A program made the position numbers and the translations under genes. Below the pieces are notes generated by a model. It worked only from the letters and a program-made list of their open reading frames with translations, searched no databases and was not told where the DNA came from. A DNA stretch of 64,000 bases from an uncultured Acidimicrobiaceae bacterium. Its GTDB lineage: Bacteria; Actinomycetota; Acidimicrobiia; Acidimicrobiales; Palsa-688. The DNA lies in contig CAVSOT010000007.1 of assembly GCA_963729695.1 (NCBI GenBank), positions 425,332 to 489,331 on the forward strand, in the 5' to 3' direction. Below are positions 1-36,452 of this stretch, in pieces. The stretch's first letter is position 1. Every line of letters starts with the position of its first letter.

Positions 1-851
1 TCCGAGGGGGCGGTATCGAACAGTTGGCCAACAATGTCAATCCGGCCTACAACCGAGAACGGTTCGCGGAGGCCCACGATCTGCTGATCAAGACGTGGAC
101 GGTGCCCGGCCCCTGGCGATGGGAGGGTGAGCACTATCAGGTCCGGGTGGTCAACCCCTGGTCGCTGCCGCTGCAGATGCCACATCCGCGGATTCTCGTC
201 CCGGGCGTTACGAGCCCGGAGTCGATCGTCTTCGCCGCCGAGCACCAATATCCCTACATCTGCCTGAACATGACCCTTCCGGTGACGAAACGGATCTGGG
301 CGACCTACGACGAAGCGGCTGCCCGGGCCGGTTACACGGCTGGACCCGAGCACCGGGGCTACTTGATGCGCTGCCACGTCCAACGAGATGGGGACAAAGC
401 CCGGGCTATTGCGGCAGATTTCACCTGGATGATGGGAGACACCATCGGGTTGGGGAATCCGGCGTGGAATGCTCCCACCGGTTACAGCAGCTTCGATGCC
501 CGCCAGGCTCGAATCAAGGCGTTGAAGGAGTACAGCGTCCCGATAGAGCAGCAGTTCGAGAACCTGACCTTGATCGCGGGCACGCCCAAAGAGGTGATCC
601 AAGGCATCCGGATCTGGCTCGAAGAGACCCGCCCAGGGATGCTGATCTTTATGCCGAACGAGGGTCGAGTCACCCACGACGATGCGATGGAGTGCATCAG
701 ACTCATGGGCGAGGAAGTGCTCCCTGCCGTAAGGGACATGGCCAAAGAGCTCGACCTTCCCGGTCCTTTCGAGGCCGACTCGGGCATCAGCCCCGCGGCC
801 CGGGCCGCAACATGGCCGGAGCCGTCTCCGGTGGCGTCGCCGGTGGCCTGA
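1..851 (+). CDS. LLM-class (luciferase-like) flavin-dependent oxidoreductase, C-terminal fragment (5' end outside window)
   Basis: Frame is open from the window edge to TGA 849-851. The C-terminal half aligns by eye with the complete paralog at 24653..25810 (VNPWSLPLQMPHPRILVPG vs VNPWPRPIQTPHPPIWIPG). Confidence 0.8.
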   Translation, partial: RGGGIEQLANNVNPAYNRERFAEAHDLLIKTWTVPGPWRWEGEHYQVRVVNPWSLPLQMPHPRILVPGVTSPESIVFAAEHQYPYICLNMTLPVTKRIWATYDEAAARAGYTAGPEHRGYLMRCHVQRDGDKARAIAADFTWMMGDTIGLGNPAWNAPTGYSSFDARQARIKALKEYSVPIEQQFENLTLIAGTPKEVIQGIRIWLEETRPGMLIFMPNEGRVTHDDAMECIRLMGEEVLPAVRDMAKELDLPGPFEADSGISPAARAATWPEPSPVASPVA

Positions 852-2000: not shown

Positions 2001-3353
2001 GTGACCGCCCCCACTTCGCTGGAGGAAATTGCCGACGGCCTGGTGGCCGTGGTCAGGAGCAGTTGCCCGACGTGCGTGACCGTGGCTCCGGTTCTCGCCG
2101 AGCTGGCGTCGGAAGCCTCGTTGACGGTCATCAGCCAGGACGACCCGGGATTCCCTGACGGGGTCGAGTCGGTGGTCCTCGACCAGGATCTCCACCTGTC
2201 CTGGCTTCTCGGCATCGAGACGGTGCCAACCCTCCTCCGCGTAGCCGACGGGCGCGAGTCGGCCCGAGAGATCGGCTGGCACCGCAGCCGTTGGGAGACC
2301 CTCAGCGGCGTCCGGGAGTTGGGTGAGGGGCTTCCCGAACAGCGGCCGGGATGCGGCTCGCTGTCGGTCGAACCCGGTGTGGCCGAGGCGCTCGACGTCC
2401 GCCACCGACGCCAGATCATGCGCTCCCGTCGAGTCGAGTTCTCCGTGCTGGAGGACGAGTTCGAGGGCATGTGGGCGCGAGGGTGGACCGATGGGTTGCC
2501 GGTGGTGCCGCCAACCGAGGCGCGGGTCTTGGCCATGCTGGACGGCGCCCGGCGCGACCCCGACGAGGTGGTCGGGATCGTGGCGCCGAATCTGGTCCCG
2601 GTGACGGTGGAGAAGGTCGCGGTCAACGCAGTAATGGCCGGATGCCGTCCCGAGTACCTTCCCGTCGTCCTCGCTGCGGTCGAAGCCACCTGCACTGAAG
2701 GGTTCAACATCCACGGGGTGTTGGCCACCACGTTCTCCGTGGGGCCGGTGATCATCGTCAATGGTCCAGTGGCCCGCGCTATCGGTGTGAACAGCGGCGT
2801 CAACGTCCTGGGCCAGGGCAACCGGGCCAACTCGACCATCGGTCGGGCCCTTCAGCTGGTGGTTCGCAACGTCGGGGGCGGCCGTCCCGGCGGCGTCGAC
2901 CGAGCCACCCTCGGCAACCCCGGGAAGGTCGGTTTGTGTTTCTCAGAGGACGAGGAGGGTTCGCCTTGGGAACCGCTCTCGGTAGAGCGGGGAGTGCCCG
3001 ACGGAGTTTCCGCCGTCACCGTGTTCGCTGGAGGGGGGACGCACTCCATCTCCGACCAGACGGCCCGGACACCTGAAGATCTCAGCCGTACCCTGGCGTC
3101 CGGGTTGCGATCGGTGGACACCCTGCTGCTGGTCTCGCCTGATCACGGCCGGACCTTTCGGGACGGTGGCTGGTCGAAGGCCCGGTTGCGCGCCGCACTC
3201 GAACAGCCGAACCAGCGAACCGGGATGCTCGGAAGCCGAGAGTTGCTGATCGTGTATGCGGGTGGGGGCGCCGGGCTCTTCTCCGGCGCCATGGAGGGCT
3301 GGGGTGGTGGCCCCATGGGTAGCATGCACGTGACACGGGAGGTTCGACCATGA
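2001..3353 (+). CDS. fusion protein: N-terminal thioredoxin-fold domain (CPTC) + uncharacterised ~300-aa 'domain X'
   Basis: GTG start preceded by AAGGAAG. SSCPTCVTVAPVL...ETVPTLL is a thioredoxin-like CxxC fold. The C-terminal part (about 2433..3353) has two paralogs in the window (about 30410..31425 and 32109..33189) sharing GLPxxPPT, AGCxPEY, NGP, RANxTxGRA and FCFxED motifs. Confidence 0.85.
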   Translation: MTAPTSLEEIADGLVAVVRSSCPTCVTVAPVLAELASEASLTVISQDDPGFPDGVESVVLDQDLHLSWLLGIETVPTLLRVADGRESAREIGWHRSRWETLSGVRELGEGLPEQRPGCGSLSVEPGVAEALDVRHRRQIMRSRRVEFSVLEDEFEGMWARGWTDGLPVVPPTEARVLAMLDGARRDPDEVVGIVAPNLVPVTVEKVAVNAVMAGCRPEYLPVVLAAVEATCTEGFNIHGVLATTFSVGPVIIVNGPVARAIGVNSGVNVLGQGNRANSTIGRALQLVVRNVGGGRPGGVDRATLGNPGKVGLCFSEDEEGSPWEPLSVERGVPDGVSAVTVFAGGGTHSISDQTARTPEDLSRTLASGLRSVDTLLLVSPDHGRTFRDGGWSKARLRAALEQPNQRTGMLGSRELLIVYAGGGAGLFSGAMEGWGGGPMGSMHVTREVRP

Positions 3354-3395
3354 CGCCGATCGAGATGCCGTCGGGCGGGTATCGCGCTGAGTACC

Positions 3396-3923
3396 TTGCT
3401 GGACCCGACGGCTGAGCTCGCCCCCGCGAGCAGGGCGCTCGTCTCCCGCCCTGCTGGCCTCGACGGGTTGACCATCGGTCTGCTCGACATCTCCAAGCCC
3501 AGAGGTGACGTGTTCCTCGACCAGCTCGCGCAGCGACTGCACGGGCGGGGATGGAGCGTCCTGCGCTATGCAAAACCAACCTTCACCAAGCCGGCGCCCA
3601 TCGATCTTCGCCAGGAGATCGCCGTCCAGTGCGACGTGGTGATCGAGGCCCTCGCCGATTGAGGCAGCTGTACGTCGTGCAGTGTGCACGACATCGCCGA
3701 CCTGGACTCGCGAGGCGTGCCAGGCGTGTTTGTGGCGTCCCGCGAGTTCATCCCTGCCGCCGCGGCCCAGTCCGAAGGTCTCGGTTTTCCCGCCGCCGCG
3801 GTCTTTGTCGACCACCCGATACAGGATCGCACCGACGAGGAGGTCAGAGCCCTGGCTGACGGCGCCCTGCCTGCGCTTCTCGCCGCGCTCACCAACCCTG
3901 CGCCCACCCGCAGCGCGGACTGA
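3396..3923 (+). CDS. UGSC-motif selenoprotein (TGA 3660-3662 read as selenocysteine); function unknown
   Basis: ORF-track fragments 3396..3662 and 3684..3923 share one frame and are split only by TGA. Read-through gives ...VVIEALAD-U-GSCTSCSVHDIADL.... A paralog with the same TGA context lies at 31761, a hairpin lies 11 nt downstream, and the sel genes are in the window. The start is uncertain (TTG 3396, or ancestral ATG 3350 in another frame). Confidence 0.8.
3674..3692 (+). promoter_or_regulatory. SECIS-like RNA hairpin downstream of Sec codon
   Basis: Perfect inverted repeat GTCGTGCA-GTG-TGCACGAC starting 11 nt after TGA 3660-3662. The apical region contains GU. Confidence 0.55.
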
Positions 3924-4004: not shown

Positions 4005-4838
4005 GTGCACTGGGGGATCGGCTCCGTTCGGGTGACCAAGGTGGTCGAGTACGAGACGTCCGGCCCGTTCCCGAGACTGCTGCTTGGAGCCCCAACCGAC
4101 CTCGCCGAGAAGCACAGGTGGCTCTCCCCGCATTTCGTGACCGACGACGGCGAGGCCCGAACGTCGATTCACGGCCTGGTTGTCGATACCGGGGCCCACC
4201 GGATTCTCGTCGACACCTGTATCGGGAGCATGCGGGAGATGTCGAGCGTGCCCCTCTCACCCAGCGGGTTCCTGGACGCCCTGAACGCAGCCGGCTACGG
4301 CGTGGACGATATCGACACCGTCTTGTGCACCCATCTCCATTTCGATCACGTCGGTTGGAACACCCGCTTGGTGGACGGTCAGTGGCAGGTCACCTTTCCA
4401 AAGGCCCGTTATCTGTTCAGCCGGTCGGAATGGGAGCATTGGCAGACGGCGACCAGCGGGCTGGTGGACATCGCCCACACCGTGGAGCCCGTGGTGGCGG
4501 CCGGCCAAGCCGAGATGGTCGAAGTCGACTGCGTGGTCTGCGACGAGGTTCGGCTTGAGCCGACACCCGGCCATACGCCCGGCCACGTCAGCGTGGTGAT
4601 CGAGAGCGCCGGCGAGCGGGCCGTGATCACGGGCGATCTGGCCCACCATCCGGTCCAGTTCGCCGAGCCACAGCTCGGCAGCCCCGCGGACTCCGATCGG
4701 GCCGAGGCGGTGGAGACGCGCCGTCGCTTCCGGGAGGAGCGTGGCGCCGACGGCGCCTTGGTCATCGGCACCCACTTTGGCGGACCTACTGCCGGGCGGA
4801 TCGTCTGTGAGGGAACGTCATGGCGCTTCGCTGTCTAG
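4005..4838 (+). CDS. MBL-fold metallo-hydrolase (lactonase-like)
   Basis: HxHxDH motif (CTHLHFDHVGW) and a later HTPGH. The GTG start is uncertain by a few codons. Confidence 0.8.
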   Translation: MHWGIGSVRVTKVVEYETSGPFPRLLLGAPTDLAEKHRWLSPHFVTDDGEARTSIHGLVVDTGAHRILVDTCIGSMREMSSVPLSPSGFLDALNAAGYGVDDIDTVLCTHLHFDHVGWNTRLVDGQWQVTFPKARYLFSRSEWEHWQTATSGLVDIAHTVEPVVAAGQAEMVEVDCVVCDEVRLEPTPGHTPGHVSVVIESAGERAVITGDLAHHPVQFAEPQLGSPADSDRAEAVETRRRFREERGADGALVIGTHFGGPTAGRIVCEGTSWRFAV

Positions 4839-4889: not shown

Positions 4890-5861
4890 TCAGGATTGAC
4901 TCGGAGCGGGAAGGCGCAAGCGTGGCCATACCTCTCGCACCGCCAGCTCGATGACGTCCAGGCTGTCCTCGAAGACCGCAGGCGAGATGATAAAGGTGCG
5001 GGCGCCGGCATCGACAAACGCCTGGAGCCGAGCGGCGACCTCAGCGGGCGTCCCAGCCGGCGCAACCCGCTCGGCCTTGGCCACCTTGTCGGGAGTCCGG
5101 TAGGCGTACCCGAAGAAGCGGCCGATCTCGTCTCGCGCCTGGTCCCCATCCTTGCGGATGGCGCACTTCACGGTCAGCATCCACTCGAATCCGTCGAGGT
5201 CTCGGCCCCGACGCGTCGCCTCCTCGCGGACGACCCGCACGGACTCCGCGTACGCCCGGGGTGACACGAGGTACGGCATCCAGCCGTCGCCGGCCCGGGC
5301 GGCGCGGCGCATCGCCGCCGGCTTACGACCCGATATGACCACAGGCAACTGGCGCGGGCGGGTCGCCGTCTCGTCTGCCCCGAGGGGCTGGACCCGGTGC
5401 AACTGGACGTCGTCGAGGTGGAAGTAGCGCCCGTGGTGGGTCACCGGCTCACCGGTCCACAGCGCCCGCATGACTTCGAGGGCTTCGTCGGTTCGCTGGC
5501 CTCGCTCTGTGATCGGGCTCCCGACCGCTTCGAACTCTTCGGGAAATTCGCCGCCGACACCGATGCCGACCGCAAGCCGGCCGCCCGAGTGGGCGTCGAG
5601 GTCGGCCAACTGCTTGGCCACCAGCACGGGATGATAAAGAGGTAGGACGAGCACCGCCGTGCCGATGCGTACCCGTTCGGTCCATGCCGCGAGCAGGGCG
5701 ACGCGTGTGATCGTCTCGCCCCGCGGGCCCCGAGGAAGGATGTGACCGCCGTGCCAGATGGACTCGATGGGCAGGCGTTCCGCCGCGGCCAACCAGGCTC
5801 GATCCGGCTCGGGGATTGCCGCGGCCCCGAACACGATGCGGTCGGCTATCGCCGCTGGCAT
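4890..5861 (-). CDS. LLM-class (probably F420-dependent) oxidoreductase
   Basis: Luciferase-like TIM-barrel signature stretches (RVRIGTAVLVLPLYHPVLVAKQLADLD, GRLAVGIGVGG). Start trimmed to ATG 5861 (MPAAIADRIVFG...), since the upstream 79 codons of the ORF are Arg/Pro-rich and non-coding-like. Confidence 0.8.
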   Translation of the reverse strand: MPAAIADRIVFGAAAIPEPDRAWLAAAERLPIESIWHGGHILPRGPRGETITRVALLAAWTERVRIGTAVLVLPLYHPVLVAKQLADLDAHSGGRLAVGIGVGGEFPEEFEAVGSPITERGQRTDEALEVMRALWTGEPVTHHGRYFHLDDVQLHRVQPLGADETATRPRQLPVVISGRKPAAMRRAARAGDGWMPYLVSPRAYAESVRVVREEATRRGRDLDGFEWMLTVKCAIRKDGDQARDEIGRFFGYAYRTPDKVAKAERVAPAGTPAEVAARLQAFVDAGARTFIISPAVFEDSLDVIELAVREVWPRLRLPAPSQS

Positions 5862-5955
5862 GGATCGTCCCTGATGGCCGAGCACGCTACTGCAAGCCCG
5901 AAGGGGTCCCACCGTCCGGGCGGAGGGAGTGGCGGGTGGGCCGCTGCTCGTGATG

Positions 5956-6000: not shown

Positions 6001-6145
6001 CGCGCCTGGCGACAAATGGACATCTGTGCAGCCTCAGGCTGTACAGACGTCCAAAGAATGAGACCTCGCCGCTGGAGGACCACCGGCTCGGCCGCCACCT
6101 ACCCGGCGGTCCCCAACAGTGGTTCCCCAACAACGGGGCCATAGG

Positions 6146-8422
6146 ATGCCCCCCATGGCACTGTTGGGTACGCCGCTGACCCGTCGCGAAGACGAGCGGC
6201 TTCTCACCGGCCGCGCCCAGTACGTCTCGAATCTCGATATCCCAGGCGCCGCGTTTGCCGTGTATGTGACCTCGACCGTGGCCCACGGTCGCATCCTCTC
6301 CGTCGACCTCAGCGACGCGCGTACCGCTCCGGGAGTGCTCGGGGCGTACAGCGCCCACGACGTCGATTTCGGCCCGTATCCGCTGGGAGATCCCACCGCG
6401 CCCGTGGCCATCGTCCGTCCGCTTCTGGCGGGCGACACCGTCCATTTTGTGGGCGAACCGATCGCGGTTGTCGTCAGCGAGACACGCGAGGCAGGCGTCG
6501 ACGCAGCCGGACTCGTCGTGGTCGACATCGATCCGCTCCCGGCTCTCCCGAGCCTCGAGCGGGCCCTTCAAGGCGACGTACTGCTGTACCCCGAGGCCGG
6601 TTCGAATGTGGTGAAGCGCGAAGAGGGAGGCGATCCAGAGGCGGAGGCCCTGCTCGACGCCTGCGAGGTGGTCGTCCGGGCCACCATCCGGAGCCCACGC
6701 GTCGCGCCCTGCCCCCTCGAGACGAGAGCGGGGGCGTCCCGATGGGAGGAAGACGGCCGGCTGACGCATTGGTCGGCGTGCCAGGGTCCCCACCCCATCC
6801 GAACCCTGCTGGCATCGCTCTACGACCTGCCGGCTGACCGGATTCGGGTCATCGCCCCCGACGTCGGTGGCAGTTTCGGCGCCAAGGCGCGTGCGTACCC
6901 GGAGGAGACGTTGCTGCCATGGCTGGCGGAGCGGGTGGGTCGGCCGGTGCGCTGGGTGCCCACCCGGTCCGACGACATGGTTGGCCTGGGGCACTCCCGC
7001 TGCCAGCAACAGCACGTGGCCCTGGGCGGCAGCCGGGACGGGACCCTGGAAGTGCTGAGCGTCAAGGTCGTCGCCGACGCAGGCGCGTATCCGATGTCCG
7101 CCGCGCTCTTGGCGCGCAATACGGGTTTGCTGTCGCCCGAGATCTACCGCATTGGCAAGGTCCACTGGGAGACCGAGGTGGTGGTTACTTCGACCACTCC
7201 GGTGACGGCCTATAGAGGTGCCGGCCGCCCCGAGGCGGCGGCGGTCACGGAGCGGGCGGTCGAGCTGTTCGCCCGGGAGATCGGAATGGATCCCGTCGAA
7301 CTTCGTCGGCGCAACCTTCTTCGTTCGTCGCAGTTTCCCTATACGACGCCGACCGGCCTCGTCTACGACAGCGGCGATTACGAAGTGTTGCTGGACCGGG
7401 TCCTCGACGCGGCCGGATATCAGCAGCTACGCAACGAACAGTCCTGCCGTCGGGCCGAACAAACCCCCGTTCAGCTCGGCATCGGTGTGGCGATGTTCCT
7501 CGACCGCACCGCCGGGTTCCCCGGCAGCGAGTACGCGCGCACGCAGCTTCGATCAGACGGTTCGGTTCTCCTGACCACCAGCTCGACGCCGCACGGTCAA
7601 GGTCATCACACGGTGTGGGCGATGCTCGTGGCCGATCGCACCGGCCTTCCCCTTGAGAAGGTCGAGGTTGTCCATGGCGACACGGACCTGATGCCCTACG
7701 GCAGCACGACGGGGGGCTCGGTATCGGCGCAACGGGCCGGGTCGGCCGTGGCGCTGGCGGCCGAGCAGCTGGTGGAGCTGGGCCGCAATGCCGCTGCTGA
7801 TCTCTTGGAGGCCGCCGTCGAGGACATCGTCCTCGACGCGGGGGGCCCGGCCTGCTTCCACGTGGCCGGGTCGCCGTCGACCGCCTTGAGTTGGGAGGAC
7901 ATCGCCGTCGCTGCGGCTTCCGCCTCGGACTCGGGCCTGGCCTGCGAGTCGGACTGCAGCAGTGCCGCCACCTTCCCGGCCGGCGCGTACGTCGCCGTGG
8001 TCGAGGTCGACACCGAGACGGGTGCCGTCAGCGTGCGACGGCTGGTTACCGTGGACGACGCGGGGACCGTCCTGAACCCGTTGCTGGCCGAAGGGCAGGT
8101 GCACGGCGGTTCGGCTCAAGGGATAGCCCAAGCGTTGCTCGAGGAATTCGTATACGACGACGCGGGTAATCCGCTCACATCCAACTTTGCCGACTACGCA
8201 GTGATCTCCGCCCCCGAGCTCCCGTCCTTCGAATCGTTCATGGTGGAGACTCCCTCGCCCAACAATCCGCTCGGCGCCAAGGGCATTGGCGAGTCGGGTT
8301 CGATCGGGGCTCCTCCCGCTGTGCAAAATGCGGTCATCGACGCCCTCCTGCCCTTCGGTGTCACCCACGTCGACATGCCGTGCACACCCCAGCGGGTCTG
8401 GCAGGCCATGCGGGGGATATGA
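6146..8422 (+). CDS. xanthine dehydrogenase family molybdopterin-binding subunit, form-II CoxL-like
   Basis: N-terminal LGTPLTRREDERLLTGRAQYV and the AYRGAGR motif (VTAYRGAGRPEA) typical of form-II CODH-like large subunits. ATG 6146 or 6155 is more plausible than GTG 6119. Confidence 0.85.
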   Translation: MPPMALLGTPLTRREDERLLTGRAQYVSNLDIPGAAFAVYVTSTVAHGRILSVDLSDARTAPGVLGAYSAHDVDFGPYPLGDPTAPVAIVRPLLAGDTVHFVGEPIAVVVSETREAGVDAAGLVVVDIDPLPALPSLERALQGDVLLYPEAGSNVVKREEGGDPEAEALLDACEVVVRATIRSPRVAPCPLETRAGASRWEEDGRLTHWSACQGPHPIRTLLASLYDLPADRIRVIAPDVGGSFGAKARAYPEETLLPWLAERVGRPVRWVPTRSDDMVGLGHSRCQQQHVALGGSRDGTLEVLSVKVVADAGAYPMSAALLARNTGLLSPEIYRIGKVHWETEVVVTSTTPVTAYRGAGRPEAAAVTERAVELFAREIGMDPVELRRRNLLRSSQFPYTTPTGLVYDSGDYEVLLDRVLDAAGYQQLRNEQSCRRAEQTPVQLGIGVAMFLDRTAGFPGSEYARTQLRSDGSVLLTTSSTPHGQGHHTVWAMLVADRTGLPLEKVEVVHGDTDLMPYGSTTGGSVSAQRAGSAVALAAEQLVELGRNAAADLLEAAVEDIVLDAGGPACFHVAGSPSTALSWEDIAVAAASASDSGLACESDCSSAATFPAGAYVAVVEVDTETGAVSVRRLVTVDDAGTVLNPLLAEGQVHGGSAQGIAQALLEEFVYDDAGNPLTSNFADYAVISAPELPSFESFMVETPSPNNPLGAKGIGESGSIGAPPAVQNAVIDALLPFGVTHVDMPCTPQRVWQAMRGI

Positions 8423-27155: not shown

Positions 27156-28397
27156 GTGATGACACAGTCCAGGTTTGTACGCCTCATAGAGCGGTTCGAT
27201 CCGTTCGATCCCGAGTTCGTACAGCACTTCAACCAGGTTTGCGGAGACCTCAGGGAGCAATGCCCGGTTGCCCACAGTTCGGCGCACGGAGGGTTTTGGA
27301 CCTTCAGCCGGTTCGACGAGGTGCTGCACGGCTTTGCCGACAACGATGGCCTGTCGGCGGTTCCCACGGCGACGATTCCCCCCAATCCCAACGCGGTGCA
27401 CCTCCTGCCCCTTCAGGCGGACCCGGCCGAACACGGCGACCTCCGTCGATTCCTCAACCCGTACTTTCGGGCGGGGGCGGTTGGCAAATTCGAAGCGGGC
27501 ATCCGATCCGAGGTCACCGCGCTCATCGACGATTTCATCGAAGCCGGGCGCTGCGAGTTCATCGCCCAATTCGGTCGGCGCCTACCCGGCGCCGTCATCT
27601 TCCGCCAGCTGCTCGGGCTTCCCGAAAGCGAAGTGGACGAGGCCTACCACTGGGTGATGGCCATCATGCACGGCCACAACACCGACGAGTTCGGTCATAT
27701 CTTCGACAGTTTCTCGACTCTGGCCGCAGGCATGCTCGAACGCCGGCGGAACGAGGACCGCCGCGACGACGCCGTCGATGCCCTCCTGCACGGAACGATA
27801 GGGGACCGGCTCCTCACCGACGACGAGATCATCCGGACGCTCATGCTCCTCATCGCGGGTGGGCTGGACACGACCGCGCATGCCCTCGGCAACTTTGTCA
27901 TCAGGTTGGCGCACGACCCGGAGCTGCGGGGGCGCCTCGAAGCCGAGCCGCAGCGCATACCGGGAGCCATCGAGGAGCTGCTGCGCATCGACCCGCCGGC
28001 CGGTGGGCTCGTGCGCACGGCGGTGCGCGACCTGGTGATCGACGGCGCGGAAGTACGGGAGGGCGACCGGATCCTGCTCCTGGTCGCGGCGGCGAATCGA
28101 GACCCCCGCGAGTTCGAGGCGCCCGAGCGCATCGATCTCGACCGCACCCGCAATCGGCATCTGTCTTGGGGATACGGCACCCACTTCTGTCTCGGCGTGC
28201 ACCTGGCCCGCCTGGAACTACGGGTGGCGTTCGAGGAGATCCTCGACCGGCTCCACGACATTCAGGTGCTCGACCATCCCGTCCCCTACGACACGGGCTG
28301 TTCTAGGGGCCCCGTCGCCCTGCGCATCGGCTTCACGCCGGGACTGCGACGTGAGCCCCAGAGGTCAGCTGCGCACGCGTCCCCGAACGATGGCTGA
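27156..28397 (+). CDS. cytochrome P450
   Basis: Heme loop WGYGTHFCLGVHLARLE and EELLR. Confidence 0.9.
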   Translation: MMTQSRFVRLIERFDPFDPEFVQHFNQVCGDLREQCPVAHSSAHGGFWTFSRFDEVLHGFADNDGLSAVPTATIPPNPNAVHLLPLQADPAEHGDLRRFLNPYFRAGAVGKFEAGIRSEVTALIDDFIEAGRCEFIAQFGRRLPGAVIFRQLLGLPESEVDEAYHWVMAIMHGHNTDEFGHIFDSFSTLAAGMLERRRNEDRRDDAVDALLHGTIGDRLLTDDEIIRTLMLLIAGGLDTTAHALGNFVIRLAHDPELRGRLEAEPQRIPGAIEELLRIDPPAGGLVRTAVRDLVIDGAEVREGDRILLLVAAANRDPREFEAPERIDLDRTRNRHLSWGYGTHFCLGVHLARLELRVAFEEILDRLHDIQVLDHPVPYDTGCSRGPVALRIGFTPGLRREPQRSAAHASPNDG

Positions 28398-29286
28398 ATC
28401 CGCGCTTGGTATGGTGCTCGACTGGTTCGGCTGCGCGACCTTCCGGCTGCGGGCGCAGGGCGTGACGATCTTTCTGGACGCCTACATCGATCGGGTCGCG
28501 GGGGCTCCGGGCCCCGCCCTCACTGCCGATGACGTCGACGAGTGCGATTGGATGGTGATCGGCCACTCGCACTTCGATCACCTTTACGGTGCGGATCGCA
28601 TTGCCAGCTCGACCGGGTGTCGGATCATCGGCAGCTACGAGACGATCCGTGTCCTCGAATCGTGCGGGGTTCCGATCGACCAGATGATCTGCGTCTCCGG
28701 TGGGGAGCGCATCGAGCTGGCCGATGGGCTCCGGGTTTCGGTGTACCCGAGCCAGCATTCCTGCGTGTGGACCCACCGCCAGATGCCGCGGGTCGACGAG
28801 GTGTGCATCGGCGACCTCGGCGTCACGTGGCAGGAGCAGGCGGCGCGACTCGCCGACCTGGGCGCCTACTACGCCGGGCTCGGGGGCGCCCTGTTCGACC
28901 ATCTTCGGTCGACGCATCAAGGCGCAAGGGGCGACGGTGGCTCGTTGGTGTATCTCTTCGAGACGCCCGAGGGTTCGCTTCTCTACCAGGACACTTCGGG
29001 ATGCTGGACGGGGGTGCTCCGTGACCTCCGACCGGATGTCGCCATTCTGGCCGCGGCTGGTCGGGGCAACCTCGATGGGGATCCCATCCAGGGGAGCCTG
29101 GCCCAGTTCGTCGCTCGGGAGGTGGCTCTGCTGAGGCCCCGACAGGTCGTGCTCAGTCACCATGATGACTGGCTCCCCGGGTTTTCCGTCGAGACTGACG
29201 TCGGGCCTATCCGATCTGAGCTTTCCCGCCTGGCCCCGAGCGCCGAGCTGCGGGAAATCGGGTATCTCGATGGGACGGTGCTGTAG
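28390..29286 (+). CDS. MBL-fold metallo-hydrolase
   Basis: HxHxDH (VIGHSHFDHLYG). ATG 28390 (MAESALGMVLDWFG...) overlaps the P450 stop by 8 nt. Confidence 0.75.
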   Translation: MAESALGMVLDWFGCATFRLRAQGVTIFLDAYIDRVAGAPGPALTADDVDECDWMVIGHSHFDHLYGADRIASSTGCRIIGSYETIRVLESCGVPIDQMICVSGGERIELADGLRVSVYPSQHSCVWTHRQMPRVDEVCIGDLGVTWQEQAARLADLGAYYAGLGGALFDHLRSTHQGARGDGGSLVYLFETPEGSLLYQDTSGCWTGVLRDLRPDVAILAAAGRGNLDGDPIQGSLAQFVAREVALLRPRQVVLSHHDDWLPGFSVETDVGPIRSELSRLAPSAELREIGYLDGTVL

Positions 29287-29298
29287 CCGGCCCGGTCG

Positions 29299-31425
29299 GT
29301 GCACTCATCGTGGTTGACACCCGGCGGACCGTGTGAGACGGTGATGTTTGCTTTGAGCCGAGCAGGTAGTTCGTTGAGGACAACCGCTGTCGTCGGAGCC
29401 GGGGCCAGCGGCCTGTCGGCCGCCTGGCACGTGGCCCGTCGGGGTCATCACGTCATCCTGATCGACCATCAGGGGGCCGGGGGACAACTGTTGAACGTTG
29501 GCGTCATCGAGTCCGTTCCTGGTCTCGGGTCGTCGGTACGGGGGCCCGACCTGGTCGCTCGAATGGTGCAGCAGATGGATGAGCAGAAGATCGAGTGGCT
29601 GCACGAGCGGGCTGTCAACATCGGGCACCGGTCGAACCGGTTCCGGATCCTCACCGACGCGGGTTCCGAGGTCGTGGCCGACGCCGTCATCGTGGCAACC
29701 GGATCTTGGCACCGCCAACTCGGTGTTCCCGGCGAGGACGCCCTCGAGCACCGGGGCGTGTCCCACTGCGCCGTCTGTGACGGCCCGCTCTACCGGGATC
29801 GACCAGTAGCAGTGGTGGGTGGCGGCGACGCGGCCGCCGACGCCGCCGCCTACCTGGCCGGCATCTGCTCGCGGGTTCACCTCGTGCACCGAGCGGGTCG
29901 ACTCGAAGCGGTTGATGCCTTGTGTCGCCGGCTCTATGGGCTCCCCAACGTGGAGCATTGGCCCGACACGGAGGTGCGTCGCATCGGTGGGGACACAGCG
30001 GTCGAGGCGGTGGAGATCGAAGACGGCGCCGGGGGGAGGCGGAGCATCGAAGTAGCCGCTGTCTTCGTCGCCGTCGGGATGGATCCCGACGCCTCCTTGG
30101 TCGCCGGCCTCGCCCAGCTCGACCCCTCAGGATGCGTGGCGGTCGATGCCGGCCTGATGACAAACGTCCCGGGCCTGTTCGCCGTGGGAGCGGTCCGGGC
30201 GGGGACCTCCGGCCAGCTGGCGGGCTCCATCGGCGACGGTGTCGCCGCCGCCGCGGCCGCGGATGGGTGGCTTCGGTCCCAGCGCCCGCCGGCCGGTAGT
30301 CCAGGGTTGGCTCGTAGTCCAGGGTCGGCTCGTAGTCCAGGGTCGGCCCTTCGTCCGGGATGGGCCGGTGGTCCCGGATGGCCCGGCAACGCCACTCGCA
30401 CCCGTCGTCTCGACGATGGCTCGGACTACGTCGACTACGGCGACTTCTTCGACTCGATGGGCGAAGTCGGGGTCGGCGATGGATTGCCTCTTGTGCCGCC
30501 TACACCGGCGCGTTTCGACCGCTTCGCCACCGCGTTGGCGTGCGATCCCTACGAACTGCTGCCGGCTCTTCCGGACGGCCGCCGGCTGCGCTACGCCGAC
30601 CTCGTCATGTCCGCCATCCTGGCCGGCTGCCGCCCGGAGTACATGCCGGTGGTCGCGGCCGCAGCCGAGTCGCTGTTGACGGATCTCGCCGGCCGGCAAC
30701 CGCGACTGCCCGACTCCGTTGCGGTCGTCCTCGTCAACGGTCCCGTCCGGGAGACGATCGGCCTCAATTGCTCGGACGGCCTCTTCGGGCCGGGGTGGCG
30801 AGCCAATGCCACCATCGGGCGGGCCGTTCAGCTGTTCCTCCGTGGGCAGGTCGACGATCGCCGGCCGACCGGGTTCGGCGACGCCGGACAGATCGCGTTC
30901 TGCTTCGGAGAAGATGAACAAACGTCGCCCTGGACGCCACTGCACGTCCAGCGGGGATTAGATCCAGGCCAGAGCACGGCCACCGTTTTCGTGGCCAACG
31001 CCTACCGGCACATGCTGGACCGTCAGAACACTGATGCGGACGGGATCATCGAGTACCTGCGGCTGTTCCTTCGCGGCCGGGCCTCAGGAACCCGACTGTT
31101 CGGCGACGTCCCGCTAACCCTGATGGTCGTCATCGGTCGGGAGCTGCGGCGCCAGTTGGCCCCGCGCTATTCGAAGGCGGAGCTATCCGAACGGCTGTTC
31201 GACCTTCTGACCCTGGACGACGGGACGCCCTTTGGGCCAATCGACGTGCCCGATGCCGACCACGTTCTGATCGTCGGGGCGGGAGGCGTCGCCACCCCCG
31301 CACTATGGTGCTTTGTCGCGGCGGCGTCGCCGCCCGTTACCGTGCCGGTCCGCGATCCGGGACTCGCCTTCGGATCTGGGCCGCCGCCACGAGCTCGAGA
31401 GATGAGCCAAGGAGAAGCGAGATGA
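29299..31425 (+). CDS. fusion protein: thioredoxin-reductase-like flavoprotein (CAVC) + Pro/Gly-rich repeat linker + domain X
   Basis: VVGAGASGLSAAWHVARRG (FAD GxGxxG), GVSHCAVCDGPLY (TrxB-type redox disulfide), VVGGGDAAADAA (NADPH site) and GLFAVGAV. The C-terminal DGLPLVPPTPAR...LAGCRPEYMPVV...VNGPV...WRANATIGRA...FCFGEDEQ is domain X. Start may be ATG 29344. Confidence 0.85.
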   Translation: MHSSWLTPGGPCETVMFALSRAGSSLRTTAVVGAGASGLSAAWHVARRGHHVILIDHQGAGGQLLNVGVIESVPGLGSSVRGPDLVARMVQQMDEQKIEWLHERAVNIGHRSNRFRILTDAGSEVVADAVIVATGSWHRQLGVPGEDALEHRGVSHCAVCDGPLYRDRPVAVVGGGDAAADAAAYLAGICSRVHLVHRAGRLEAVDALCRRLYGLPNVEHWPDTEVRRIGGDTAVEAVEIEDGAGGRRSIEVAAVFVAVGMDPDASLVAGLAQLDPSGCVAVDAGLMTNVPGLFAVGAVRAGTSGQLAGSIGDGVAAAAAADGWLRSQRPPAGSPGLARSPGSARSPGSALRPGWAGGPGWPGNATRTRRLDDGSDYVDYGDFFDSMGEVGVGDGLPLVPPTPARFDRFATALACDPYELLPALPDGRRLRYADLVMSAILAGCRPEYMPVVAAAAESLLTDLAGRQPRLPDSVAVVLVNGPVRETIGLNCSDGLFGPGWRANATIGRAVQLFLRGQVDDRRPTGFGDAGQIAFCFGEDEQTSPWTPLHVQRGLDPGQSTATVFVANAYRHMLDRQNTDADGIIEYLRLFLRGRASGTRLFGDVPLTLMVVIGRELRRQLAPRYSKAELSERLFDLLTLDDGTPFGPIDVPDADHVLIVGAGGVATPALWCFVAAASPPVTVPVRDPGLAFGSGPPPRAREMSQGEAR
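30296..30385 (+). repeat. in-frame 18-nt (6-aa) tandem repeat, 5 diverging copies, forming the inter-domain linker
   Basis: GTAGTCCAGGGTTGGCTC / GTAGTCCAGGGTCGGCTC / GTAGTCCAGGGTCGGCCC / TTCGTCCGGGATGGGCCG / GTGGTCCCGGATGGCCCG, encoding GSPGLARSPGSARSPGSALRPGWAGGPGWPG. Confidence 0.7.
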
Positions 31426-32112
31426 ACCCTCTGGTGCGTCCGGTGAACGTTCGAAACGAGGTCGGAGTGGTGTGCGACCCGCTCGCTCCCTTGCCGGCCG
31501 GCGATGGCCGCGCCGAGCGGACCGTTGCCTCCCGGCCCTCGTCGCTCGACGGCAAGGTGCTCGCCGTGATCGACAACGGGATGGGCCAGCAAGCTCCAGG
31601 ACTGGGTTTCGGAGAGGTCTTGGTCCGGAAGCTGAAGGAGGTGGCCGACATTGCCGATGTCATCTACGTTCGCAAGGACGCGGTCAACGTCCCCCCTCGC
31701 CCAGAGGACTGGATGGAGATATGCCGTCGTGGCGACGTCGGTCTGGCCCTCTACGGCGCTTGAGGGAGTTGCAGCTCGCGCAGTTTCGCGCGACGCCATA
31801 GAGCTCGAGTGGGCTGGCATACCGGCAGTAGCGGTGGTGCACGAGGCGCTGGCCGGCTCGGCCGACGCCATGAGGTTGATGTCGGGGATCCCGCACTATC
31901 CGTTTCTCGAGGTCAACTTCCCGTTACCCCCGGTCGGCCCGTGGACCGTCGAGCAGGTTGAGGCTGTGTGCGACGAGCTGCTCCCCGGAGTGATCGAACA
32001 ATTGACCCACGACATCGCCGGGCCCGCGGCGCGTGACCAGCAGTCCGCCCCTGCGCTGGTCCCTGCCGGTGATGCCGTCGCAGAGGATCGGCCGAGGGCC
32101 CCGGCGCCGTGA
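31422..32112 (+). pseudogene. UGSC-motif (seleno)protein paralog; needs TGA 31761 recoding and a +1 frame correction near 31779 (pseudogene or assembly indel)
   Basis: ATG 31422 overlaps the upstream stop (ATGA). Frame 0 gives ...DVGLALYGA-TGA-GSCSS. The homologous continuation AVSRDAIELEWAGIPAVAVVHEAL...PFLEVNFP is in the +1 frame through TGA 32110-32112. The span is 3n+1 nt. Confidence 0.6.
31776..31793 (+). promoter_or_regulatory. SECIS-like hairpin downstream of second in-frame TGA
   Basis: TCGCGC-AGTTTC-GCGCGA, starting 12 nt after TGA 31761-31763. The loop contains GU. Confidence 0.4.
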
Positions 32113-33189
32113 CAGCCGGCGGTCAGACCCGGACGTTCGCCGATTATGACGATTTCTTCGATGACTTTGTCGAGCGCGGCGCTACGGATGGGCTTCCCAT
32201 CATCCCCCCGACCCCAGCCCGAGTGGACGCTGCTCTGGCCGCGGCCGGGCTGGATGGACGCGAAGTGTTGGGGGAGATTCCCACCCGGGATGTCGTGGTG
32301 GACGCCCGGCGGGTCGCGATCAACGCAGTCATGGCGGGGTGCTTGCCCGAGTACATGCCTGTCGTGGCGGCCGCGGTGCGAGCGTGGACGCATCCGCTGG
32401 CCAATGGGCACGGCGTCACCGGGAGCCTCGCCGGGCCGACCAATCCCATCATCATCAATGGTCCCATCGCGACGGAGCTCGGGTTCAACGGTGGGGCGGG
32501 GTGCTTCGGGCCGGGCTGGCGAGCCAATGCCACGGTGGGACGAGCACTTCGTCTGATCGTCAGGAACGTCGCTCTGTCGATACCCGGCTTCGCCGATCGC
32601 GCCGCCTACTCCCAGCCTGGGCGCTTCACGTTCTGCTTCTGCGAAGACCAACAATCGACCGTCTGGAACCCACTCCACGTCGAGCGCGGCTACCGCCCCG
32701 AGGACAGCGTGGCAAGCGTGCATTCGAACACGGACATCTTCACCTATCGCAGCGAGGAGCCCGACCCGGAGGGCCTCCTCGACGGCCTCGTGACCCTCGC
32801 TCGGGCTCGTCCGGTCCAGAAGGAGGACTTCGTGGGCCAGTGGCGCAGCGTGGTCATCGGTAATTGGACCGGATCACCGCGACGTCCTGGAGCGCAACGG
32901 ATGGTCGAAGGCAGCTGTCCGCGAGTATTTGCATCCTCGGTTGACGATGCCGGACACGTTCGAGCCGGGCGCTCGGACCGTCTGGGGTAGCCAACCGACG
33001 GGAAGCCTGGGTGAGTACTCGTTCTATATCCCGAACGCCGACAACGTCCTCCTCGTTGCCGCCGGGGGGAGGTCGGCCTTCCAATCTGTCGTTTTGTACC
33101 CCCACGTGTCCAGCACCGTCTCCGCCGAGGTCACCTTCGACGGTTCGCGCGGCCGGTTGGTCCCCGACGACAGCATCGTGTGCGGTTGA
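32109..33189 (+). pseudogene. stand-alone domain-X paralog with +1 frame discontinuity at about 32862 (pseudogene or assembly indel)
   Basis: GTG 32109 overlaps the upstream stop (GTGA). Frame 0 carries DGLPIIPPTPAR...MAGCLPEYMPVV...INGPI...WRANATVGRA...FCFCEDQQ...WRSVVIG. The homologous C-terminus (IGPDHRDVLERNGWSKAAV...LLVAAGG) continues in the +1 frame to 33189. The span is 3n+1 nt. Confidence 0.6.
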
Positions 33190-33865: not shown

Positions 33866-34870
33866 TCAGTCGAGCGCGACCATGGGCGGTCCGGGCCCGA
33901 CCTCTCCAATCTCCCACCACCCGTTTCCGGCCAGGACCCCAGCGTCGTCGGGATGGACCGAGACGAGGAGTCCTCCCGAGGTTTGGGGGTCGATGGCCAG
34001 AGCCTCCAGGCTGGGTTCGGCCGCCGACGACAGATGGCCCTGCAAGTAGGCCCGGTTTCGGGCATCACCGCCCGTGCGCACCCCGGCCGTGGCGGCGCGC
34101 TTGGCCCCCGGATACAGAGGGAGGGCGGCCGAGTCGAACCGGATCGAGGCGCCTGACCTCTCGGCAATTTCCCAACCGTGACCAACCAGGCCGAACCCGG
34201 TCACGTCGGTGACTGCGTGCGCCGCCGGCCCGTAGTCTCGATCAGGAAGCTGCGCCAGTTGCTGCGCCGCCTTCCTGTTGAGCACTCGCATCTGCCCGAT
34301 CGTGGCCGTTTTCGAGCCTTCGTCGGTGCTGGCCAGCACGATGCCGGAGCCCAGCGGTTTGGAGAGGAGCAAGCGATCCCCCGCCAGGGCGCCGCCTTTG
34401 GTCCAGATCCGCTCGGGATCCACCAGCCCTTGGACAGCGAGGCCGAAGATCGGTTCGGCCGACCGGATCGTGTGGCCGCCGGCAATCGTCCCCCCGGCTT
34501 CGGCGACCACGGCGGCGGCCGCCTCCAGGATGGCTGCGATCGCATCTGGGGGGAATTCCTCGGGAAAGGCGGCAATGTTGAGAGCGGTGATCACCCGTCC
34601 TCCCATGGCGAATACGTCGCTGCAAGCGTTCGCGGCTGCGATGGCCCCGAAGTCGGCCGGATCGTCCACCAGGGGTGGGAAGAAGTCGGTGGTGGACACG
34701 ACCGCCAGTTCGGGCGATAGCCGGTACACAGCGGCGTCGTCGAAGGGGGCCAGACCGACGAGGAGATCAGCGTCCTCGGTCCCGGCGACCAGGTCCACCA
34801 GCCCGCTCAACGCGGCGCCGCCCCATTTGGCCGCGCACCCTCCACAGGATGTCCATTCGGTCAGTTTCAC
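33866..34870 (-). CDS. selD: selenide, water dikinase (selenophosphate synthetase), Cys-type
   Basis: LTEWTSCGGCAAKWGG N-terminal active-site loop followed by the AIR-synthase-like fold (DDAAVYRL..., DFFPPLVDDP, TDVTGFGLVGH). GTG 34870 overlaps the selA stop (GTGA). The longer ORF-track N-terminus overlaps selA and looks non-coding. Confidence 0.9.
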   Translation of the reverse strand: MKLTEWTSCGGCAAKWGGAALSGLVDLVAGTEDADLLVGLAPFDDAAVYRLSPELAVVSTTDFFPPLVDDPADFGAIAAANACSDVFAMGGRVITALNIAAFPEEFPPDAIAAILEAAAAVVAEAGGTIAGGHTIRSAEPIFGLAVQGLVDPERIWTKGGALAGDRLLLSKPLGSGIVLASTDEGSKTATIGQMRVLNRKAAQQLAQLPDRDYGPAAHAVTDVTGFGLVGHGWEIAERSGASIRFDSAALPLYPGAKRAATAGVRTGGDARNRAYLQGHLSSAAEPSLEALAIDPQTSGGLLVSVHPDDAGVLAGNGWWEIGEVGPGPPMVALD

Positions 34871-36180
34871 GGACCAGATCCTTCCGTTGGTGAGGGGGCC
34901 GCGTGGGCGGGCCCTGACAACGCCGCTCGTATCGCCTCGCCGAGGTCGCCGTCCTGGTGCTCGAAAACGGCGCGCATCTCGCAGAGGGTGCGGCCCTTTT
35001 CGACCCTGGGGATCACGGGAGGTTGCCAGCTGCGCAGGGGCGCGGAGATATCGCCTTCGATGGCCACGGCAACCGAGGGGATGAGCACGCCGGGGAGCGT
35101 TCCACCCCCCATGGGAGCCGCCGTATCGACCACCTCGCCGACAGCCAGGCGCTGTGCCCTTTGGCGGAGATCCGGCAACGGAGTCGTGGCCAGCTTCCAC
35201 AGCGGCACGGTGGACCCGGCGTCACGCCGCAGGTAGGCCAAAGCGACGTTCTGAAGTGCTTCCAGGACCAGGCCGCCCGGGCGGAGCACCCGGGCCAGCG
35301 GGTGCCGGCGGCACCTGTCCACCAGGGTGCTCGAACCGGCGATGATGCCGGCCTGCGGGCCGCCGAGCAGCTTGTCGCCGCTGAAGGTGATCAGGTCGGC
35401 TCCAGCCGACAGCGTCTGGCGGCACGCCGGTTCTCCCCCCAGCCAGTCTGGTGGACCGTCGGAGAGCCACGGGCAGGCCGCGTCCAGCAGCCCGGACCCG
35501 AGGTCGACCACCACCGGTGCTCCCAGCCCTTTGAGCTCCCGGACGGCGACCGACTCGGTGAAGCCACTGACGCGAAAGTTGGAGGTGTGGACCTTGAGCA
35601 CCAACGAGGTGAGAGGACCGATGGCCGCCTCGTAATCTCCTCGCTTGGTCCGGTTGGTGGTCCCAATCTCGACCAGCTGCGCACCCGAGGTCGCCAGGAT
35701 CTCCGGTATCCGGAATCCTCCGCCGATCTCGACGAGCTCTCCCCGGCTCACGATCACCTGGCCACCGCCACCGGCGAGCGCGGTGAGGGCGAGGAGGACG
35801 GCGGCCGCTCCGTTGTTGACCACCAGGGCCTCCTCGGCGCCGCACGCTTTGGCGATCAGGGTGGCGGCGTGCGCGGAGCGGTCGCCCCTGCTGCCGGCAT
35901 TGACGTCGAATTCGAGATTTGAGTACCCCGCCACGCGCTCGACGGGCAGCGGCGCTCTGCCGAGATTGGTGTGCAACAGCACCCCGGTTGCGTTGACGAG
36001 AGGCCGGAGGAGGCGCCGCCGGGTGTCGGCGGCTACGGCGGCCGCCCGTTGCAGGATGGTGTCCCCGTTGCCGTCCTCGCGGAGGACCGTCCTGGCCACG
36101 TCGACCAGAATCGGATGAGGCAGACCTGACGGCGCCAGCTGGCGGGCCAACGAGTCCACCGATGGTGGGCGGTGCGCCAC
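34867..36180 (-). CDS. selA: L-seryl-tRNA(Sec) selenium transferase
   Basis: VNATGVLLHTNLGRAPL, and the PLP-lysine motif FSGDKLLGGPQAG. Confidence 0.9.
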   Translation of the reverse strand: MAHRPPSVDSLARQLAPSGLPHPILVDVARTVLREDGNGDTILQRAAAVAADTRRRLLRPLVNATGVLLHTNLGRAPLPVERVAGYSNLEFDVNAGSRGDRSAHAATLIAKACGAEEALVVNNGAAAVLLALTALAGGGGQVIVSRGELVEIGGGFRIPEILATSGAQLVEIGTTNRTKRGDYEAAIGPLTSLVLKVHTSNFRVSGFTESVAVRELKGLGAPVVVDLGSGLLDAACPWLSDGPPDWLGGEPACRQTLSAGADLITFSGDKLLGGPQAGIIAGSSTLVDRCRRHPLARVLRPGGLVLEALQNVALAYLRRDAGSTVPLWKLATTPLPDLRQRAQRLAVGEVVDTAAPMGGGTLPGVLIPSVAVAIEGDISAPLRSWQPPVIPRVEKGRTLCEMRAVFEHQDGDLGEAIRAALSGPAHAAPSPTEGSGP

Positions 36181-36258
36181 GCCCGTAGGCTAGCCCTGAT
36201 GAGCATCGCCGACAGAGCCTGCATCCGCGTCGTAGTGGGGCGGGGCGGGCTGCTCCGG

Positions 36259-36351
36259 CGGAGGTGGACGGGAATCGAACCCGCCGCTGTGGGTGCGCCA
36301 CAGCCAACCGCTTTGAAGGCGGCGGAGTCCACCAGGTACTCGGACACCTCC
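36259..36351 (-). tRNA. selC: tRNA-Sec (anticodon UCA)
   Basis: The reverse complement reads GGAGGTGTCCGAGTACCTGGTGGACTCCGCCGCCTTCAAAGCGGTTGGCTGTGGCGCACCCACAGCGGCGGGTTCGATTCCCGTCCACCTCCG. It has a 7-bp acceptor (GGAGGTG/CACCTCC), anticodon loop CTTCAAA, a long variable arm (GCTGTGG-CGCAC-CCACAGC) and a 6-bp T-stem with loop TTCGATT, giving 13 stacked acceptor+T base pairs as in tRNA-Sec. It lies between selA and selB. Confidence 0.85.
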
Positions 36352-36452
36352 GCGTGGGAGTGTAACGACGGTCAAAAGCGGCCGGCAAGCCGGCGCAGGG
36401 GCCGTCAGCTCGACCATCAGGCGCGCCACGCGACCATCGCGGTCGAGGTCCT

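Follow-up and report, generated by a model that had tools for sequence, protein, structure and literature searches.

The UGSC selenoprotein and its near-obligate partner domain are tied to the thioredoxin system

The stretch of DNA analyzed here, which we call the window, comprises 64,000 nucleotides from an uncultured Acidimicrobiaceae bacterium (GenBank assembly GCA_963729695.1, contig CAVSOT010000007.1, positions 425,332 to 489,331). It contains two gene modules in which a selenoprotein of the UGSC family is encoded directly behind a fusion protein that joins a component of the thioredoxin system to a domain we call domain X. UGSC, in whose motif U stands for selenocysteine (Sec), is the "UGSC-containing protein" of Zhang and Gladyshev and has been known since 2005–2008. 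It is common in aquatic bacteria and is the top family in most non-marine Global Ocean Sampling (GOS) samples (PMC2398784). The literature of 2007, 2008, 2022, and 2026 classes it as a selenoprotein of unknown function. Among cultured bacteria, Hyphomonas neptunium has been reported to possess it (PMC1976440). Below we describe the two modules, the distribution of their parts across genomes, and what these results suggest about the function of the pair.

Module A begins with a gene of 450 codons on the forward strand (2001..3353). Its product opens ...VVRSSCPTCVTVAPVL and joins a thioredoxin (Trx) fold at residues ~1–102, with a CPTC motif at residues 22–25, through a linker to domain X at residues ~150–450. 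The profile of this fusion family (Trx::X) matches thioredoxins in the PDB with a best E value of 2e-4. In an AlphaFold2 (AF2) model of the protein, with a mean predicted local distance difference test score (pLDDT) of 85 and a predicted template modeling score (pTM) of 0.84, the Trx domain retrieves thioredoxins and ResA/CcmG-type proteins by Foldseek (probability 1.0, template modeling (TM) score to target 0.55–0.63). The canonical thioredoxin model TIGR01068 fails on the N-terminus (18.5 bits, cut-off 96.8). Because of this low score we read the N-terminus, from profile and model, as a Trx-fold domain distinct from canonical TrxA.

Between the Trx fold and domain X lies the motif RPGCGS (residues 115–120, window ~2343..2360), which is ordered in the model. 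Its Cys, in the form [RK]PGC, is kept in 63 of 72 members of the Trx::X family and is also present in fusions annotated as "redoxin"; the CxTC motif is kept in 70 of the 72. Judging from this conservation, the linker Cys is likely to be an extra relay thiol. Domain X itself contributes two conserved Cys columns, Cys215 in MAGC (2643..2645) and Cys313 in C.SEDE (2937..2939).

Only 42 bases downstream on the same strand starts UGSC gene A (3396..3923; 175 codons, TTG start). It reads ...VVIEALAD-TGA-GSCTSCSVHD..., which gives the motif U89-G-S-C92-T-S-C95 with the in-frame TGA (3660..3662) read as Sec; tRNA-Sec, selA, selB, and selD are all present in the window. The residue six positions after Sec is encoded at 3678..3680. 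With Sec written as Cys, the product scores 145.4 bits on Pfam PF24696 (cut-off 25, E 2.5e-42) and 151.1 bits on NCBIfam NF041046 (cut-off 125, E 2e-44). By sequence, both UGSC genes of the window are assigned to the UGSC family.

Decoding of the TGA as Sec is also visible in other genomes. We surveyed them in two directions. A genome scan seeded with domain X, in which each species was represented by a single genome, yielded at least 597 loci, and the neighborhood counts below refer to the best 80 of these. A reverse survey was seeded with UGSC in 80 metagenome loci, using a pattern that favored the subfamily with a third Cys. Of the genome loci that contain UGSC (n=77), 75 have TGA as the Sec codon, one has TGC, and one has TAG; in the UGSC-seeded loci it is TGA in 80 of 80. 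The TAG codon occurs in a Blastococcus metagenome-assembled genome (L020:1371-1373), where UGSC is otherwise normal and a SECIS-like hairpin (selenocysteine insertion sequence) is intact. Sequencing error and pseudogene formation are among the causes that could account for it.

In UGSC gene A, RNA folding yields a SECIS-type hairpin, GUCGUGCA-GUG-UGCACGAC (3674..3692, forward strand), that starts 14 nt after the UGA. Among 75 loci drawn from many phyla its core stem hardly varies in nucleotide sequence, even at synonymous positions such as an AGT Ser codon. The changes that do occur preserve pairing: GC to GU in 24 loci, GC to AU in one, and CG to UA in two. Both the conservation and the pair-preserving changes fit a bacterial SECIS element. 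An earlier sequence-only reading of the window had proposed that a CPTC Trx fold fused to domain X directly precedes a UGSC selenoprotein gene, and the open reading frames, the family models, and the hairpin confirm this.

Module B is a tightly overlapping operon on the forward strand: a metallo-beta-lactamase (MBL)-fold gene, a fusion of a thioredoxin reductase (TrxR)-like protein with domain X (TrxR::X), UGSC gene B, and a third domain X paralog. The MBL-fold gene (28351..29286; Lactamase_B_2 in Pfam) ends 12 nt upstream of TrxR::X and is probably the first gene of the operon. TrxR::X (29299..31425, 708 residues) has a low-Mr (low molecular mass) TrxR-like flavoprotein at residues ~25–330 with a CAVC active site, followed by a Pro/Gly-rich linker and then domain X (nt ~30400..31422). 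It contains the motifs GAGASG and HCAVCDG. The thioredoxin-disulfide reductase model TIGR01292 matches residues 29–324 over its full length (E 1e-78), with 264 bits, below the equivalog cut-off of 343; by sequence we take the N-terminus to be a homologue. Close relatives of the TrxR::X protein were not found in a metagenome scan made with it. UGSC gene B (31422..32112) overlaps TrxR::X in an ATGA, has its TGA at 31761..31763, and carries the motif UGSCSSRS. It overlaps in turn, in a GTGA, with the third domain X paralog (32109..33189), which is of the stand-alone type and about 359 residues long when intact.

That a TrxR-like protein with HCAVCDG is fused to domain X and precedes a second UGSC gene had been recognized before and is borne out here. 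What had been missed are two single-base frameshifts, both seen by comparison with two intact homologous operons, L087 and L088. UGSC gene B has a 1-nt insertion, an extra C, near 31787 that breaks the frame: a tblastn comparison with the intact L087 gene splits into two frames, and the DNA alignment shows the insertion. The third paralog has a 1-nt insertion near 32858 that breaks its frame. A frame-plot scan of GC content at third codon positions across the window picked up neither of these two known frameshifts and was dropped. The insertions are either decay in the organism, leaving pseudogenes, or indel errors in the assembly. The operon is intact elsewhere. In L087 it consists of P450, MBL (85% identical and in the same position), TrxR::X (70% identical), UGSC with Sec, X (359 residues), glyoxalase, selD, and selA; in L088 it consists of TrxR::X, UGSC, and X.

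The genes for Sec synthesis and insertion adjoin module B. On the reverse strand lie a Cys-type selD (within 33866..35200), selA (34867..36180), and tRNA-Sec (36257..36351), followed by selB on the forward strand (36453..38183). The synteny of this region (33866..38183) recurs in L087 and L003, and SelA or SelB is present in about 10 of the 80 related loci.

Our surveys show how tightly domain X and UGSC are coupled. In 77 of the 80 loci the gene right after Trx::X, in the same orientation, is UGSC, and two of the three exceptions are contig ends (77 of 78 informative loci). The loci span Actinomycetota, Myxococcota, Alpha-, Beta-, and Gammaproteobacteria, Chloroflexota, Acidobacteriota, Nitrospirales, Spirochaetes, and others. 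Because the order Trx::X then UGSC recurs in 77 of 80 loci across many phyla, it is not due to chance. Looking from the other side, 63 of the UGSC-seeded loci have enough upstream DNA, and in 60 of these the gene immediately before UGSC encodes domain X; in one further locus an X gene ends 2.6 kb upstream. The pairing is near-obligate in both directions. The sequence-only reading had placed domain X always next to a U-x-x-C protein, a claim that our survey of adjacency upholds far beyond the window.

No other gene is a general member of these neighborhoods. We clustered the conserved open reading frames of the 80 loci with a conservation-based choice of frame, since antisense shadow frames mislead in high-GC DNA. 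The only general clusters are Trx::X (80 loci) and UGSC (76 loci). The next clusters, an HhH-GPD glycosylase, an MBL-fold protein, a flavin reductase, an acyl-CoA dehydrogenase, SelB, and SelA, each occur in at most 19 of the 80 loci and look like lineage synteny.

Domain X is a large family. Searched alone against 1.84 billion representative proteins, it finds 5,292 clusters (at 50% identity) at E<=1e-3 and 1,377 at E<=1e-30. Searches with Pfam and NCBIfam, using single sequences and 29 members at E<=10, gave no recurring match, and PDB sequence profile searches gave no match. When both AF2 models were compared with the PDB by Foldseek, the X portion found nothing better than E ~0.03, and comparison with the viral BFVD library returned generic alpha/beta matches only. 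No similarity to any Grd or Prd model was detected at E<=10. Domain X is thus a family of thousands of proteins without a Pfam or NCBIfam model or a structural relative in the PDB, and it matches no characterized family. Its invariant or nearly invariant motifs are GW.DGLPVVPPT, NAVMAGC.PEY.PVV, NGP, GPG.RANATIGRA, PGKY..C.AENE..SPWEPLHVERG, PEH, and GGAG.HS. About 330 of 366 family members retain the Cys of MAGC, whose conservation thus extends outside this genome.

Domain X is also joined to other domains within single polypeptides. Behind a Trx fold it appears in at least 8000 database matches, usually named "thioredoxin family protein." Behind TrxR it appears in about 11 clusters (P0387–P0397). 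In P0256 (549 residues), the part of UGSC after the Sec codon is followed by X and then by the catalytic beta chain of ferredoxin-thioredoxin reductase (FTR; FeThRed_B, 1.4e-16), an architecture that suggests a ferredoxin-driven version of the system. There are also UGSC::X fusions, with X directly behind UGSC, in Cys forms (CGNC, CGSC) and in Sec forms. The latter are shortened at the TGA by gene callers, as at L174, where the sequence reads ...NALGD-TGA-GSCTSWSVHD...GWGDG. Stand-alone X proteins of about 371 residues and X-X tandems of about 640–740 residues are both preceded by a Sec-UGSC gene. At L173:7001-11584, a Cys-form UGSC::X is followed on the same strand by genes for a major facilitator superfamily (MFS) transporter, a NifU-like protein, TrxR, and Trx. 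Given these fusions, domain X is tied to UGSC by fusion and adjacency, and to the thioredoxin system by four independent kinds of fusion and one operon.

We examined ten X fusions that are annotated as redoxin, peroxiredoxin, or TlpA. CPTC is present in nine of them and the PGC linker in all ten. We considered whether they are peroxiredoxins of the AhpC/TSA type and rejected this identity, as the PxxxT/SxxC motif is present in none of the ten. In the one such locus that was examined, a Sec-UGSC gene comes next.

The residue six positions after Sec varies with the type of partner. It is Cys (UGSCT[ST]C) where X is fused to a Trx fold, in 75 of 77 loci and in L001, L003, and L091. With stand-alone X, X-X, and UGSC::X it is Trp (UGSCTSW), and with TrxR::X, in the window, L087, and L088, it is Arg (UGSCSSR). 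Together with the linker Cys and CxTC, this co-variation would fit a multi-step thiol/selenol relay that is specific to the Trx-fused form.

Fusions of UGSC had been seen before. The 2008 paper describes a "UGSC/Unknown_1" fusion with an unnamed conserved domain and calls the UGSC fold "likely Trx-like" (PMC2398784). Unknown_1 is probably domain X. As for the fold, an AF2 model of the natural UGSC::X fusion P0270 scores a pLDDT of 92.7 and a pTM of 0.92, which implies that UGSC and X are confidently packed together in this model. UGSC is predicted to form a five-stranded beta-alpha unit with the Sec or Cys at the end of strand 3, where a helix starts. Because Foldseek against the PDB gives weak flavodoxin-like matches only (best E 1.2e-3, TM score to target <=0.48), we predict a flavodoxin-like fold and not the Trx-like one that was guessed in 2008. 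A PDB sequence profile search with UGSC found nothing relevant. The invariant residues of UGSC are a Lys, U/C-G, an Asp (in HD), a Gly, a Phe, and HP.

Another result concerns the selenoprotein B family of glycine reductase and its relatives. Single UGSC sequences (n=19) match selenoprotein B models weakly: TIGR01917 in 10 of 19 (best E 8.9e-5), GrdF in eight, TIGR01918 in five, and PrdB and GrdH in one each. All of these matches fall on the region that holds the Sec, and those to TIGR01917 cover model positions ~333–396 of 431. We also built a profile of 15 "proline reductase PrdB"-like GOS selenoproteins from the supplement of PMC2398784. Aligned to it with hhalign, the UGSC profile gives an E value of 3e-5 with Sec placed on Sec, and in a control the X profile, compared with the same PrdB-like profile, gives a probability of 0.1% and no match to its N-terminal region. 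Judged from these alignments, UGSC resembles a reduced version of the selenoprotein B Sec core, to which it would be related. We nevertheless do not count it among the members of that family, because full-length models fail and because it has no associated pyruvoyl proprotein, GrdA, or GrdC/D. Specifically, neither a GrdE/PrdA-type pyruvoyl proprotein nor GrdA or GrdC/D is found among the annotated recurring neighbor clusters of the 80 loci, in which rare neighbors are annotated in part.

These observations support, and in one respect correct, the original idea that domain X and UGSC form a redox couple fed by NAD(P)H through Trx and TrxR. The feeding part has gained support from the wider range of fusions (Trx, TrxR, FTR, and UGSC) and from the L173 operon. 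The flavodoxin-like and GrdB-like features of UGSC, however, point to catalysis and not to a couple only. We prefer to see domain X and UGSC as a two-part reductase in which the Sec of UGSC (U-x-x-C) is the redox center and is re-reduced by the thioredoxin system. We put the probability of this reading at roughly 0.7.

Under such a model, the two modules would differ in how electrons arrive. In module A, the cellular thioredoxin reductase would reduce the CPTC Trx domain fused to X. The Trx domain, probably together with the linker PGC Cys and the third Cys of UGSC, would then reduce the Se-S bond of a UGSC docked on X. In module B, UGSC would be reduced directly by the flavoprotein part of TrxR::X, which would draw on NAD(P)H. 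In both, X may supply a substrate pocket and its conserved Cys, and the selenolate would attack the bound substrate in a pocket formed at the interface with X. The Cys three positions after Sec would resolve the adduct to a selenenylsulfide, from which the donor would restore the selenol. By analogy with enzymes of the GrdB/PrdB type, the Sec is most likely the catalytic nucleophile.

Several points weigh against a two-part reductase of this kind. The data show the genetic coupling, the fusions, the decoding of Sec, and the remote homology, but the interface between X and UGSC, the direction and order of the relay, and the attack by Sec on the substrate are inferred. Module B is frame-shifted in the window and may be non-functional. 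Many Cys-form fusions (CGTSTS, CGASTS) lack the Cys three after Sec, and therefore the resolving step may differ between subfamilies. The relation to selenoprotein B is remote: single UGSC sequences do not match the Pfam model GRDB (PF07355), and the hhalign probability with the PrdB-like profile is only 73% over 59 columns. Finally, the 80 loci contain no conserved neighbor that would point to a substrate.

One could go further and propose an unrecognized class of Sec-dependent, thioredoxin-driven reductases, in which domain X, with a fold absent from the PDB, would be the subunit for catalysis or substrate binding. This class would derive distantly from the selenoprotein B core and would have diversified (Trx-, TrxR-, FTR-, and UGSC-fused forms and tandem X-X) across substrates in aerobic aquatic and soil bacteria. 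We offer this larger picture tentatively and would not quite bet on it.

Other explanations have to be weighed. The one that fares best is that X-UGSC is an antioxidant or repair reductase that reduces a peroxide, a sulfoxide, a protein or low-molecular-weight disulfide, or a persulfide, comparable to Trx-fused methionine sulfoxide reductases (Msr) or AhpF/AhpC. Trx::X and UGSC stand alone, without conserved metabolic neighbors in the 80 loci, as is typical of housekeeping defense genes. The preference for Sec over Cys is strong, as it is in peroxidases and MsrA/B, and the hosts are aerobic and aquatic (PMC2398784). On this explanation, however, one would not expect the "redoxin/AhpC-TSA" fusions to be Trx-like CPTC domains without the peroxidatic PxxxT/SxxC, nor X and UGSC to be unlike the Prx, GPx, and Msr families, nor other subfamilies to sit in catabolic or transport contexts. 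A role in defense or repair is a possibility that we consider somewhat unlikely.

Those other contexts bear on a second explanation. In L090:4362-11914, an X-UGSC pair without a Trx fusion lies beside genes for a polyamine-type ATP-binding cassette (ABC) system, DAO, and Fer2_4. Two unrelated loci without a Trx fusion (L172 and L174/L175) have NitT/TauT-type ABC systems beside X-UGSC, and TctC is found near one form without a Trx fusion. The variety of transporters and catabolic genes near these subfamilies hints at small-molecule substrates that are specific to each subfamily. This would suit a narrower version of the two-part reductase, with chemistry in the style of GrdB and PrdB: X would hold a small organic substrate, and the selenolate would attack carbon and bring about a reductive C-N, C-S, or similar cleavage. 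The subfamilies would then act on different imported compounds, as GrdB, GrdF, GrdH, and PrdB do.

Such chemistry is in line with the remote relation of UGSC to the Sec core, with which it has in common the layout strand-U-x-x-C-helix-(E/D)xxG(I/V)P-strand, and with the forms without a Trx fusion adjoining TctC, ABC plus DAO plus Fer2_4, NitT/TauT-type ABC (two loci), or MFS genes. Glycine reductase is likewise thioredoxin-dependent (PMC10298544). It is less easily reconciled with the lack of a GrdE/PrdA-type proprotein, GrdA, or GrdC/D among recurring neighbors, with a domain X that resembles neither any Grd/Prd model nor the N-terminal part of PrdB-like proteins, and with hosts that are mostly aerobic heterotrophs. 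The neighboring transporters also vary by locus and are often on the opposite strand. We regard this narrower version as unlikely, a shade more so than a role in defense or repair.

A third explanation turns the roles around. UGSC would be a dedicated electron carrier, a "selenoredoxin" that replaces thioredoxin, and X would be the terminal enzyme acting through its own Cys, so that the Sec never touches the substrate. TrxR::X and X::FeThRed_B lack a Trx domain, and UGSC could fill the place of thioredoxin as the substrate of these reductases; moreover, many polar residues of X are invariant, and one of its Cys residues is conserved. But Trx::X already has a thioredoxin, which would make a second carrier redundant, the MAGC Cys is lost in about 10% of X members, UGSC::X is modeled as a tightly packed unit, and the GrdB/PrdB relation points to a catalytic Sec. 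We find the carrier role doubtful, and more so than either explanation above. It is very improbable that X-UGSC serves selenium handling, such as selenide supply to SelD, and not a general reductase function. The pair does adjoin selD, selA, selB, or tRNA-Sec in module B of the window, in the L003 and L087 loci, and in about 10 of the 80 loci. In most loci, however, sel genes are absent from the surroundings, and Cys-form UGSC::X fusions exist. Moreover, if the Sec trait is inherited jointly, this explains why a client selenoprotein lies beside the Sec machinery.

The remaining genes near the two modules are of less certain relevance. An MBL-fold hydrolase gene (4005..4838) adjoins module A, and the window also has several luciferase-like monooxygenase genes (among them 24..851 and 4890..5930) and a molybdopterin oxidoreductase-like gene (6119..8422). 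Cytochrome P450-like genes (27156..28397 and 39544..40785) flank module B and the sel region, and the first of them is syntenic with L087. MBL genes flank both modules and occur in 18 of the 80 loci, many of them from Acidimicrobiia. We rejected an MBL-fold link as a general feature of the system because the three MBL genes compared belong to unrelated subfamilies and those of the window are absent from 160 other loci. Only the MBL gene of module B is conserved among the three subfamilies, namely in L087 (85%).

What is new here is the partner and its connections. The sequence-only reading had called the system a candidate undescribed one. For UGSC this does not hold, as it is a named family and a fusion of it was noted in 2008. 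The partner family and the link to thioredoxin do appear to be undescribed: a full-text search of the literature on UGSC found no account of the domain X family, the near-obligate pairing, the thioredoxin-system fusions, or the GrdB/PrdB relation. Our work exposes domain X as thousands of proteins without a Pfam or NCBIfam model or a structural relative in the PDB. It also turns UGSC from an orphan into a testable enzyme system, with a near-obligate partner, a donor in the thioredoxin system, and a Sec core related to that of GrdB/PrdB. Between them, these three results indicate the proteins to co-express, the reductant to supply, and the residues to mutate.

As a two-part reductase, X-UGSC would be a thioredoxin-dependent selenoenzyme, which is a known kind, with a partner that lacks a known fold. 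Among the closest known cases is glycine reductase, which draws on NADPH via thioredoxin reductase and thioredoxin (PMC10298544). The selenoprotein of protein B (GrdB, GrdF, or GrdH) has, like UGSC, its Sec in a U-x-x-C motif at a strand-to-helix turn, and Sec aligns on Sec. In glycine, sarcosine, and betaine reductase the selenoprotein is paired with a second, substrate-side subunit (GrdE, GrdG, or GrdI), the place that X would take in our system. The feed through TrxB and TrxA also has its counterpart in trx genes in or near the operon, here at L173. The differences are just as clear. UGSC corresponds only to the final ~170 residues of GrdB, X and GrdE are unrelated, and Trx or TrxR is fused to the partner. 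No GrdA, GrdC, or GrdD genes were seen in our loci, and the hosts are mostly aerobes.

PrdB-like selenoproteins, which belong to the GRDB family and are abundant in the sea, share with UGSC an identical spacing around the Sec (VVLLVP-U-P-V-C-...-LE..GI.TV compared with VVIEALAD-U-G-S-C-...-LD.RGVPGV). They also have a long N-terminal region that is missing from UGSC and unrelated to X, and the pyruvoyl chemistry of PrdA in D-proline reductase has no visible counterpart in X-UGSC. Proline reductase is reported to be linked to NADH, not to thioredoxin (PMC10298544).

The Msr and peroxiredoxin families, for their part, have no relation to X or UGSC in sequence or fold. Their likeness to our system lies in the design. 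In Trx-MsrA/B fusions and in AhpF-AhpC, the terminal thiol enzyme comes with its thioredoxin or flavoprotein disulfide reductase, either in one polypeptide or from a neighboring gene. X-UGSC would follow the same plan, with a Trx or a flavoprotein reductase joined to a terminal thiol/selenol enzyme.

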